DNA of 64,000 nt from Escherichia coli (lineage in GTDB: Bacteria > Pseudomonadota > Gammaproteobacteria > Enterobacterales > Enterobacteriaceae): NCBI RefSeq assembly GCF_048403405.1, contig NZ_CP183129.1; one strand, 5' to 3'. A program made the position numbers. Positions within the stretch are counted from its first letter, which is position 1; each line of letters begins with the position of its first letter. Positions 34,201-37,200 of this stretch are shown here, one piece after another.

Positions 34201-37200
34201 TTTGCTGGCGGCAGTTCAGCTGACACTGGTATTATTTTGTTTTCCAGTGCCGCACATTTAGCTTCAAGCGCATCGAATTTACGTACCAGGTACTCAGCAT
34301 TTGTTTCATTCACTTTCAGATCTCGTGGTACACATTTCCCGCGAAGAAACCCTTCCATTTCGAAAACATTCATGCGCATTTGCGTAACTCCGATAACTCG
34401 TTAAAACGTTCCATAAACATCCCGTAGGCATGGCCTGGCGACAGTGGAATCACTTTGAACATCTCTGTTGCCGGGATACCTTCCAGTACAGGCCAGAAAG
34501 AGCTATCATCAAGCCCGAGATCGCGGCGTTCGGTTGCCAGCATGATGAGATCGGCATATTTCACGGGCGTGCTCATAACCGGGGGTAACCCGTATTTCTC
34601 ACGGATTACGGCGTCTATTTTTTCTTCCATCCGTTTATAGTCAGGAAGAAGGCGTTTCAGTGGAGCGGGAATATCCTGGCAATACGCTTCTGTTGCATCA
34701 TGCATTAACGCTTCAAAAGCAAATTCCTGCGGCACCAGCTGGCTGCAAAGCACCGCATGTTGGGCGACACTGTAGAAGTGAGAAAGATGATCGGCAAAGC
34801 GGCAGATATTTGAAAGGGAAACCGCGATATCGTTAATCACGATGTCGTCTTTATTTATCCTGTCATAATAAAAATGCTTCCCGGAAAAAGTTTTAATAAA
34901 TGACATTTTGTTCTCCACGTTATATGCGCTGCACCGCTCTGAATTTTGATTGCAGCAATCCAGCCCATTTGACATGGGATGATTGCTGCAATTTTTTTAA
35001 GTTGTTGGATTTTGGCTTTTATCTTCTTTGTAAGAAAGAAGGTCACACATCAAATTAACTACCTTGCTGAATTGGAAAAGGTCAGCGCCAGTCTGATGAC
35101 GCCACTGGAATGCTTTATCATCTTCATCATTAAATGTCTGAGATTGAGTATTGATGCGCGAAAAATGGAAATTTTCGGTAAGAATGAAGGTCACACCGCA
35201 ACCGGATAACTCCATTTTATCAGCAGTGAAACTACTACTAAGGCTATCGGCCAGTTCGCTTTGAATTGACTCATGCTCAGCTGAGTAGCGAATAATTTCC
35301 TTTTGATCTGCGTAGCGTGATAGCTGAATATAATTTCCGACAGTGAATCCTTCAAATGCATTGGCTGCACCATTGATGTAGTTATTCAGGCGTGTAGTCA
35401 GTCCATTCTTGATATCACTGATGTTGATTGTTTCTGTTTTCACTGAACCGACAACCTTAATCAGCATTGCGCATACCATACCGGCTATTATTTTATTGGT
35501 TGTGTTGATTACCAATAATTTCTCATCAGTGCTGTACAATGCAAGAATCAGCGTAGACTTAACAAATGCCTGTTTGCATAGATCTACTCGTACGTTATCA
35601 ATAATGGCCAGTCGTTCGGCACGCTTTAATTTATTCCCGGACATATTTTCGATTGTTTGGATTCGAGAATTAGCTTCTTTCATGACGACATGTCGGGGAA
35701 TTATTTTCTGATCATGACGGATTACCATTGCGTACCCACCAGATATCGGAGTTACCAGTTCACCAGTGACAGGATTCTCTACAAAAGAGGACCGTGAAAA
35801 TTCTGTTTCCCCGATTTCAGAATAAGGGAGTTCGAGAAGATGACCTTCAATAGCCTGTATACTAGGTAATGTTGCTCGGTACACAATTGCGTTACGAAAT
35901 TTTGGTAATTTCATTCTATTTTCCTCTGCACAATGTATTAGTTTCTCCACAAAACAGAGAAGAACACCTGCGGTGGCAGCCGCCCGGATGGATTGGGTTA
36001 TGAGCCCGTCGTCCGGTGATGCTCTTCTCTGTTTTGTAAAAAGAGCGGTACCAGCCGGAAGCAAGTGTACAAACTGGTACCGCCAAAGCAGTGGCTGTTG
36101 TGGTGACCGGTGCTGATCTCCGGCTTGCGGTTATTTCAGACTCTCACGGGCGTTTAATTGCCCCGCCGAACAGCTCTTTTCCGCAATAGCTGCAATGTCT
36201 TTCGCGCATCAGCCTGCGCATTCACCACAACGCTAAGGATTCTCTCTGGTTGAAAATACTTAGCTGTTATGTGCCTGCTTTTAGCCACATCAGGCGAGGT
36301 GGACCTGGTTATTCCCCAACAACAAGGATTTGGTTATTATGTAACCCTCCCCAACAACGATAAGGATTTATATGGATCTATGTGTAGATAAGTATGAGGA
36401 GAGGCATGTGCCGTTAAGACAAAAGCCTCCAGTTCCTCCAAAACCACCCAAGGAAAACTGAGACTAATATGACCAGAGACGATTATAAATTTTATGTTCA
36501 CTACTCTTATGTATTGGAGAAGATGAATTACACGTTGTTAACTCGCATTGATAAATTAATAACGTTGATGTTAATCGTTCTCGGTTTTTCAGTTTTCGCC
36601 CCGTACAGTAATTTATTTATTTTCGGTTTGTTTGTTGCCGTACTTTCGGTTCTTCAGTTGGTCTATCAGTTTGGCCAAGAGGCTGGAATGTCTAAAGAGC
36701 AAGCGAGGCATTACAAAAGACTGCTGATTGAGTCTGATACCCTTCCTGAAGATCAGTTGCAAGCTAGGTATTTAAAAATCCAAGATACTGATAGTAATCC
36801 ATGGAAATCACTTGAACGAGCGGCTTTCATTCGGGCCTGTATTTTTGCTGGTGTTCCAACTAAGTACGATTTAACAACCAAAGAAAAATTTATAGCTTGG
36901 TGTGCGGGAGATCTACCTCTAGAGAATGAACTAACGGATATTAATGATGACCAACAAGCATAATCCAGTTCACGGACATGTACCTCCGAAGCCGAAACCA
37001 CCGAAACCGAAGAAATGAGACATAATAGGATTGGATAATGAGTCGACCAATAGAGCCTTTTCATATTCCACCTCGTCCCAGGCCACCAGATCCAGGCCCA
37101 AAGTGAGGGTTACTGATTTTTAAAGAGCGAAGCGTCCGGTAGGGCGCTTTTTTGGTACTAACGAATCATCCTGGACTTCATATGCCCCAGGCGGCTACTT

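Follow-up and report, generated by a model that had tools for sequence, protein, structure and literature searches.

A 64,000-nucleotide (nt) stretch of Escherichia coli DNA (NCBI RefSeq assembly GCF_048403405.1, contig NZ_CP183129.1), hereafter the window, belongs to the chromosome (MicL and C0465 were found in it) and carries a lambdoid prophage whose immunity region resembles those of e14, SfV, and mEp460. Two tandem hairpins at 35950–36083 lie in the leader of the leftward early transcript of this prophage. The original prediction, made from the sequence, had compared the pair with the put antiterminator RNAs of phage HK022. Our analysis indicated instead, with a probability of roughly 85%, that the pair consists of a terminator and a conserved structured leader RNA (element B) and is not of the put type. 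A second conserved RNA (element A), found at the beginning of the same transcript, is a tentative candidate for an antiterminator.

Position of the two hairpins in the early-left leader

The inverted-repeat search confirmed both repeats. The perfect 10-bp repeat GCGGTACCAG/CTGGTACCGC was located at 36045–36054 and 36074–36083, with 19 nt between its arms, and the perfect 14-bp repeat CAAAACAGAGAAGA/TCTTCTCTGTTTTG was found inside a 25-nt, 84% complementary repeat (35949–35973 and 36013–36037). As had been described, the first early-left gene follows closely downstream of them; this is rdgC, with its ATG at 35914. The view that they occupy the place of nutL did not hold, because some 1.15 kb, including a plus-strand gene, separates them from the leftward early promoter PL (37265–37237) upstream. 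The PL transcript starts near 37230 and reaches the hairpins after about 1.15 kb, having crossed the plus-strand gene in antisense. The features of this leader, in the direction of transcription, are as follows.

37237–37265, minus strand: promoter PL (TTGCCA-17-TAGATT), from a sigma-70 promoter scan, just past the stop codon of cI and its terminator hairpin
37240–37253: OL-like operator CTAACTTAACTTAG, overlapping PL
37154–37227 (64-nt form 37223–37160), minus strand: element A, a structured RNA of 64–74 nt that begins about 8 nt into the PL transcript
37130–37149, minus strand: small hairpin AAGCG.CC....GG.CGCUU, from fold prediction
37120–37129, minus strand: boxA-like sequence CGCUCUUUAA (CGCTCTTTAA), of the NusB/NusE motif type of nut and rrn leaders
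36469–36963, plus strand: gene of a 164-amino-acid protein with hydrophobic segments, in a PHROG of unknown function; convergent with cI
36092–36236, minus strand: structured leader domain with replaced interior, from the perfect 10-bp repeat I9 and fold prediction
36084–36037, minus strand: predicted intrinsic terminator, a 13-bp stem including the perfect 10-bp repeat, followed by UCUUUUUAC (UCUUUUU)
35943–36042, minus strand: element B, a three-way-junction RNA of about 100 nt whose P1 helix contains the 14-bp repeat
35914–35942, minus strand: unpaired 3' flank with the rdgC ribosome-binding site AGAGGAAAA and the ATG at 35914, single-stranded in the predicted fold
34997–35914, minus strand: rdgC, the first early-left gene

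The operator-like sequence at PL is part of a 31-nt repeat (family D1), two further copies of which were present in the cI–cro interval. In SfV, ZF40, and YeP1, hexamers of the TTGACA/TACATT type were found at the homologous place.

The predicted terminator and the leader domain preceding it

Fold prediction on the minus-strand transcript, which had been proposed as a check, showed that both hairpins were far more stable than shuffled sequence. The small hairpin (36084–36044) had a free energy of -21.2 kcal/mol (z -4.0) and the large one -49.3 kcal/mol (z -7.7), and none of 200 shuffles was as good in either case. The small hairpin had a GC-rich stem followed by a U-run on the transcribed minus strand only; the plus strand has CAAAGC at that place. 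In most of 33 distinct homologues, a run of U5–U8 was immediately preceded by a GC-rich hairpin of high stability (-13 to -23 kcal/mol), and at least five different stem sequences occurred among these hairpins. The 10-bp hairpin together with its U-run is, as modelled, a Rho-independent terminator. The fallback of the original prediction, that the hairpins are terminators or a small RNA (sRNA), was thus right for the 10-bp hairpin and wrong for the large one, which is neither and forms the basal helix of a branched RNA.

The leader domain upstream of the terminator was closed by a helix between GUUGUGGUGA (36231–36222) and UCACCACAAC (36106–36097); terminator included, it spans 36236–36037. 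SfV-type phages had the same two flanks around a different interior. The SfV version matched the Rfam family STnc100 (RF02076) across the full model with 39.5 bits, and the ST64B version scored 35.1 bits, both below the gathering score of 47. The SfV terminator hairpin, homologous to that of the window, aligned with the terminator of STnc100. As in STnc100 and PasD, the helix (U)GGUGAAU...CACCA encloses an interior in the leader domain of the window, and a GC hairpin with its U-run comes next. Unlike in STnc100, this interior is of another sequence and the domain forms part of the PL leader, where no promoter of its own was detected. STnc100 and PasD are located in the late region, downstream of Q, whereas this domain is located in the early-left leader; the STnc100/PasD type of prophage RNA is accordingly not confined to the late operon. 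In the PasD study, STnc100 was listed among base-pairing sRNAs and PasD among Hfq RIL-seq sRNAs (bioRxiv 10.64898/2026.05.13.724894). Two other prophage sRNAs that we considered, svsR (PMC12803456) and HnrS (bioRxiv 2025.11.27.690950), are different molecules at other locations.

A canonical STnc100 was also present in the same prophage, and its architecture is reused in the PL leader. With a score of 133 bits, this copy (45556–45755, plus strand) is flanked by the phage tRNAs and the holin gene, is located downstream of the Q-like gene, and resembles a short late-leader RNA closed by a tR'-type terminator.

Structure and conservation of element B

A block of about 300 bp (35938–36236) was at least 90% identical in 87 phage records and at least 95% identical in 69, including SfV, SfII, SfIV, mEp460, several Stx2 phages, and phages of Klebsiella, Cronobacter, Enterobacter, and Salmonella, with varying flanking genes. 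Parts of a 621-bp query around the hairpins matched 2892 of 5426 complete E. coli genomes. Within the block, a stretch of about 105 nt (36043–35938) was recognized with 73–92% identity in roughly two dozen loci where the remaining block was undetected; the loci with an element B homologue numbered 54 in total. In all 51 element A-containing loci with homology to element B or the block, element A came first, with element B or the block 3' of it and on its strand. The 5' untranslated region (UTR) in which element B was located always belonged to the first early-left gene, be it rdgC or a gene of the SfV orf32 type. No Rfam family was found for the hairpins or element B (gathering score; E <= 10), and a search for a second copy of element B in the right operon found none.

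In an alignment of 27 distinct homologues, 94.9% of the cells of the 34 base pairs were paired, and 16 of these pairs had compensatory changes. None of 500 shuffles equalled this pairing, and slid partners were only 36–50% paired. RNAalifold gave compensatory changes in 17 of 29 pairs; covariation statistics of this kind overstate independence when the sequences are related. Of the 20 pairs in the P1 helix, 11 had compensatory changes, and the helix retained at least 20 bp in all homologues despite changes in sequence; in one locus (L094) the sequence of the P1 stem was completely different. P2 had the form CCGGR-C-GA-C-GGG[CUCAUAA]CCC-AA-UC-CA-YCCGG, and P3 was a hairpin of variable length. 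In the window, P1 extended into the U-tract of the terminator, which paired with the conserved GUGGAGAA, giving 25 contiguous pairs. P1 reaches the duplex length expected of an RNase III site (about two helical turns, at least 20 bp).

A covariance model of element B (R3) scored far higher on the minus strand (113.3 bits) than on the plus strand (35.9 bits), and the minus-strand fold contained G.U pairs that are A.C mismatches on the opposite strand. This strand preference and these pairs indicated that the functional molecule is the RNA of the leftward transcript. They also bear on the possibility that the inverted repeats act as DNA, whether as a palindrome to which a protein binds, as a site of recombination, or by forming a cruciform. 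Perfect 14- and 10-bp repeats at a boundary between mosaic modules would suit such a role, but the compensatory changes preserved pairing and not sequence, the G.U pairs and the difference of 113 versus 36 bits pointed to one strand, and the interior of the element was as strongly conserved as the arms. We consider a DNA site very improbable.

In the P2 arm, CGGGCUCAUAACCC (about 36009–35996) was identical to 14 of the 17 nt of the anticodon arm of the E. coli initiator tRNA, TCGGGCTCATAACCCGA, the identity covering three G-C pairs and the CUCAUAA loop. The reference was verified as the four-copy tRNA-Met gene, 100% identical in 5425 genomes. CAU was retained in 26 of 27 homologues, and the arm was nearly invariant. 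ARAGORN detected no tRNA or tmRNA at element B, only three phage tRNAs at 45230–45479; Rfam tRNA gave no match at element B, and a cloverleaf or other tRNA arms were absent. The likeness of P2 to tRNA-fMet is regarded as a lead and not as a finding. It raises the possibility that element B is released from the leader as a trans-acting or decoy RNA that acts via the initiator-tRNA-like arm. Its targets might be enzymes or toxins that recognize the tRNA-fMet anticodon stem-loop, for instance VapC/MvpT-type nucleases, or it might bind to the P site of the 30S subunit or to IF3. The 14-nt identity includes the G-C pairs that mark the initiator, and the long P1 could be a processing signal that frees the RNA. 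However, the mimicry extends to only 3 bp and the loop, an internal loop takes the place of the two lower stem pairs of the tRNA, and the equivalents of U33 and A37 vary in a few homologues. In addition, the 14-nt identity was noticed post hoc and carries a look-elsewhere penalty. On these grounds a decoy function appears quite unlikely.

An autoregulatory 5' UTR, in which element B would be a cis operator for a phage or host protein and would govern how the first early-left gene is translated or how stable its mRNA is, was a further alternative. Its position, always 25–60 nt upstream of the start codon of the first early-left gene, is appropriate, and the invariant junction nucleotides suggest a specific ligand. 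Element B is followed by conserved GUGGAGAAAC and, in the majority of relatives, also by a small hairpin whose loop is UKGCAG. On the other hand, the downstream gene differed (rdgC, orf32 type, and others) while element B remained constant, which makes a gene-specific autoregulator unlikely, and the ribosome-binding site was unsequestered in the predicted fold. We regard a cis operator as a minor possibility, still well short of probable.

The small GC hairpin just mentioned was present 10–35 nt 3' of element B in most relatives (L001, L002, L048, L065, and others), for example as UCGACC-UUGCAG-GGUCGA or GGCGG-UGGCA-GCCGCC. The window retains just GUGCAGAGG of this region, where it serves as the rdgC ribosome-binding region.

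Absence of an N gene

The original prediction that no N-like open reading frame (ORF) exists was supported from several sides. In a PHROGs scan of the early ORFs, CII-like and Q-like proteins were found, and no N. Arginine-rich stretches in all ORFs of 29000–45300 occurred just in out-of-frame or overlapping ORFs and in one ORF of 44 amino acids with a GTG start (36154–36288, minus strand). The latter was rejected as a coding sequence: it has neither a Shine-Dalgarno sequence nor a PHROG match, the structured leader domain contains it entirely, and the SfV version has another sequence in its place. According to the SfIV genome paper (PMC3851460), SfII, SfV, and SfIV lack homologues of N, cII, and cIII. 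The premise of an N-less lambdoid phage that needs another route through its early terminators holds.

Comparison with put RNAs

In HK022, putL is located in the left operon and putR after cro, one copy per early operon, and put RNA binds the beta' zinc-binding domain of RNA polymerase, which it renders resistant to termination. According to published work on HK022, antitermination by put needs no dedicated protein factors. Like the put phages HK022, HK639, HK75, phiEt88, and O276, the prophage studied here is lambdoid and N-less, and has a structured early RNA and terminators that need read-through.

Two adjacent stem-loops in the early-left transcript of an N-less phage are what had suggested a put-type antiterminator binding the beta' zinc-binding domain. 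To define put, putL and putR were taken from HK022/O276, their positions being fixed by the O276 annotation and the residue numbers of PMC9378689, and putL-like sequences were taken from HK639, phiEt88, CobraSix, S9-5, and UPF_BP1. A covariance model (R1) of six putL sequences with the published two-stem structure recovered its own members at 93–103 bits and, as a positive control, putR in three phages at 37–40 bits. With filters off, its best score in 35800–38500 was 2.3 bits (E = 3). Position, copy number, and shape also disagreed. According to the O276/HK022 annotation and PMC9378689, putL begins at the start of the PL transcript, but the hairpins are about 1.15 kb from PL; a search to the right of cro found no second copy in the right operon; the first hairpin has a U-run and aligns with the terminator of an sRNA; and a 25-bp helix with a three-way junction differs from the two irregular stems of about 15 bp that put forms in about 70 nt. 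The hairpins are consequently not members of the put family, and the put reading must be judged highly improbable.

The claim that cro and the next gene overlap, leaving no room for a nutR/tR1 arrangement, depended in part on the start codon. The overlap was present with the longest ORF, and was replaced by a 37-nt gap with the RefSeq start of a close relative. The RefSeq record that gave this gap and the rdgC start is that of a closely related prophage, with identity verified for 35850–36470. Whichever start codon was chosen, there was no room for an element of 60–70 nt after cro.

Element A and boxA at the start of the PL transcript

When the PL region was compared by BLAST, only 37223–37160 was conserved across very different phages. 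Element A was found in SfV, SfII, SfIV, ST64B, SPN3UB, SEN34, YeP1-3, ZF40, phiNP, AH07, and Klebsiella and Providencia phages, and its host genera were Escherichia, Shigella, Salmonella, Klebsiella, Yersinia, Pectobacterium, Pantoea, Citrobacter, and Providencia. The homologues were all gathered by an exact 17-mer of the core, so the results refer to members sharing that 17-mer; it occurred in at least 120 viral contigs, with at least 99 distinct variants over 82 nt. The closing stem P1 existed in three fully compensated versions, CGAA/UUCG, CCACC/GGUGG, and UCAUC/GAUGA. It was accompanied by a 23-nt invariant stretch, AGGCAGGACGCCCACGAAGUAGC, and P3, a freely covarying hairpin of 5–6 bp with the conserved loop GGCRUAYGAA, after which the element ended with GRAUGA. 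Twelve of 13 tested pairs had changes on both sides, and 83% pairing was observed compared with 57% in shuffled and 23–42% in slid sequences.

A covariance model of element A (R2) gave 90.3 bits for the window copy and located exactly one copy in each phage, without exception in the left operon; only locus L097 had a second, diverged copy (977–1037, minus strand, 49 bits), about 640 nt downstream of the first and on its strand. R2 found no element A in mEp460, HK022, or the put phages, and a search for a right-operon copy found none. Element A had no Rfam match (gathering score; E <= 10) and no match to the put model. The genes 3' of element A were mutually unrelated and not N-like. At least four unrelated sequence types followed it, which indicated a stand-alone module without a fixed expression platform. 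A riboswitch was rejected for lack of such a platform. Hammerhead, CsrA-site (GGA), and ops-like readings were also rejected, as the core nucleotides were absent or unconserved; ZF40, for instance, lacks the GGA.

The boxA-like sequence at 37120–37129 was the sole exact match to YGCTCTTTAA in the 64-kb window. A 12-nt form, GCTCTTTAACAA (GCUCUUUAACAA), was present in 18 of 135 loci, with about 0.15 expected by chance. In the compared loci (L013, L021, L027, L065, and others), boxA was on the same strand as element A and at most about 500 nt downstream, mostly at about 65–80 nt. The small hairpin at 37130–37149 recurred in relatives with a variable loop, directly 5' of boxA; the hairpins flanking boxA had stems of 3–5 bp and loops of roughly 7–10 nt, and neither resembles a known boxB. 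Read on the plus strand, 37130–37149 resembles a terminator, with TTTTTT after the hairpin, at a site where it would end the convergent gene of the 164-amino-acid protein. In locus L090 there was a second boxA on the opposite strand, about 1.3 kb away and possibly in the right operon.

In having boxA about 100 nt into the PL transcript, the arrangement resembles boxA antitermination in rrn and nut leaders (NusB/NusE, NusA, NusG, and SuhB), and, as in rrn leaders, a hairpin precedes boxA (CGCUCUUUAA here, GCUCUUUAACAA in relatives). Unlike nut, it lacks N, and its flanking loops have about 7–10 nt compared with the 5-nt GNRA-like loop of boxB. Antitermination complexes of the rrn type act chiefly against Rho; the obstacle in this leader, by contrast, looks intrinsic.

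Element A, and not the hairpins, shares the position of putL at the start of the PL transcript. Unlike put, it has a closing stem, one internal hairpin, and a 23-nt invariant junction, and is present as a single copy; many of its phages have boxA 3' of it, whereas put acts without dedicated protein factors. Both contain GGAUGA, which is in the junction of element A and in the loop of stem II of put. Kinship of the two via CGAAC.GGC and CAGGAUGA was considered and rejected, as CGAAC belongs to one of the three covarying P1 versions and GAUGA has a different role. Element A occupies a putL-like position, is accompanied by a Nus-factor site, and is a better candidate for N-independent antitermination than the hairpins. 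That it is an antiterminator is nevertheless a tentative proposal, to which we give clearly less than even odds.

Two other conserved non-coding modules were noticed 3' of element A in other phages. One was a sequence (...UUAACGCGCAGCAGGUUUAAACGUUCCGCYGGCC...) in L009, L017, L018, L024, and others, and the other a long ST64B-type module starting with CUGACAGGUGUCUUCGGGAGGGGUU in L006, L046, and L113.

Proposed function of the leader

In the mechanism that we propose, PL would fire on induction, and the nascent 5' RNA (element A with or without boxA and Nus factors) would make RNA polymerase resistant to termination. Unmodified polymerase would stop at 36043–36038, keeping rdgC and the genes beyond it silent, and this stop might release an STnc100-like RNA or simply insulate the early-left genes. 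Element B could form only on read-through RNA, where its basal helix would take in the U-tract of the terminator to give a duplex of about 25 bp. This duplex may then be cut by RNase III or be otherwise insulating, which would split the antisense leader from the downstream early mRNA.

Precedents are known in other phages. In lambda sib/tI, the terminator sequence joins a longer duplex only in read-through RNA, and the lambda N leader and T7 early mRNA have RNase III sites. Element B resembles these in having a helix of more than 20 bp in untranslated phage early RNA just upstream of a gene. It differs from them in its conserved branched top and, from lambda sib, in being upstream of an operon instead of downstream of int. 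By this analogy, cleavage of element B is a proposal, and RNase III-type processing as its role is possible but doubtful. The full explanation, in which a separate terminator and a processing-type element B both belong to the PL leader, we hold to be slightly better than an even bet.

Several observations weigh against this interpretation. In about eight of the 33 terminator homologues (ST64B type and others), the hairpin was weak or displaced while the U-run was retained, so the U-run may be conserved as a part of element B and not as the tail of a terminator. The terminator loop is large (13–19 nt) and the U-run interrupted, and a simple terminator scanner did not flag 36084–36037. The leader domain of the window had no Rfam match (E <= 10, 35700–38300), for which reason we call it STnc100-like in architecture and not a member of the family. 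Finally, the near-invariant branched top of element B, CGACGGGCUCAUAACCCAAUCC, is unneeded by a plain RNase III site, which suggests an additional or different function.

Within the literature searched and Rfam, elements A and B are so far undescribed. It is possible, although we would not yet bet on it, that element A, alone or with boxA, represents a new class of cis-acting processive antiterminator RNA that takes polymerase from PL past the STnc100-type terminator, with element B and its initiator-tRNA-like arm as a second new functional RNA that acts on read-through transcripts. If so, element A, unrelated in sequence to put, would serve N-less phages of the SfV, ST64B, and ZF40 types in many enterobacterial genera. 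How lambdoid phages lacking both N and put pass their early terminators had no answer in the literature searched. The locus offers defined parts for this question: a promoter-proximal covarying RNA, a boxA, a terminator 1.1 kb further on, and an RNA that forms on read-through only. Roughly half of the complete E. coli genomes contain sequence matching parts of the query, so that even a modest role, be it in processing, in insulation, or as the source of an sRNA, would be widespread.

Other features of the prophage

The remaining features of the immunity, early, and late regions are given below.

37320–37946, minus strand: LexA-family cI
38044–38244: cro
39265–39341, plus strand: isrK
39366–39453, plus strand: C4-type antisense RNA, with isrK upstream of a gene of the Rha/antirepressor type (39211–40068)
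44365–44760: Q-like antiterminator gene, from PHROGs
45230–45479: three phage tRNAs (Met-CAT, Arg, Arg), from ARAGORN

A YmfL homologue that is CII-like was encoded 3' of cro. The gene of the 164-amino-acid protein, between cI and the early-left genes, is in a position typical of an exclusion or defence moron; PADLOC gave no match for the protein. A CCACAACGCTAAGGATT-like direct repeat (AAUCCUUnnCGUUGUnG on the minus strand) was present in three copies (36225–36241, 36314–36330, and 36352–36368). One of these copies, the last in the direction of PL transcription, provides the 5' strand of the helix that closes the leader domain, and the block 36366–36265 was separately conserved in many loci. 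The three-copy region could be a regulator-binding site for the divergent 164-amino-acid gene, a CII-type promoter, or a relic of recombination. The arrangement of isrK and the C4-type RNA resembles the anti-immunity modules of P1/P7 and of the Gifsy type, and the same pair was also present in SfV, ST64B, and mEp460.

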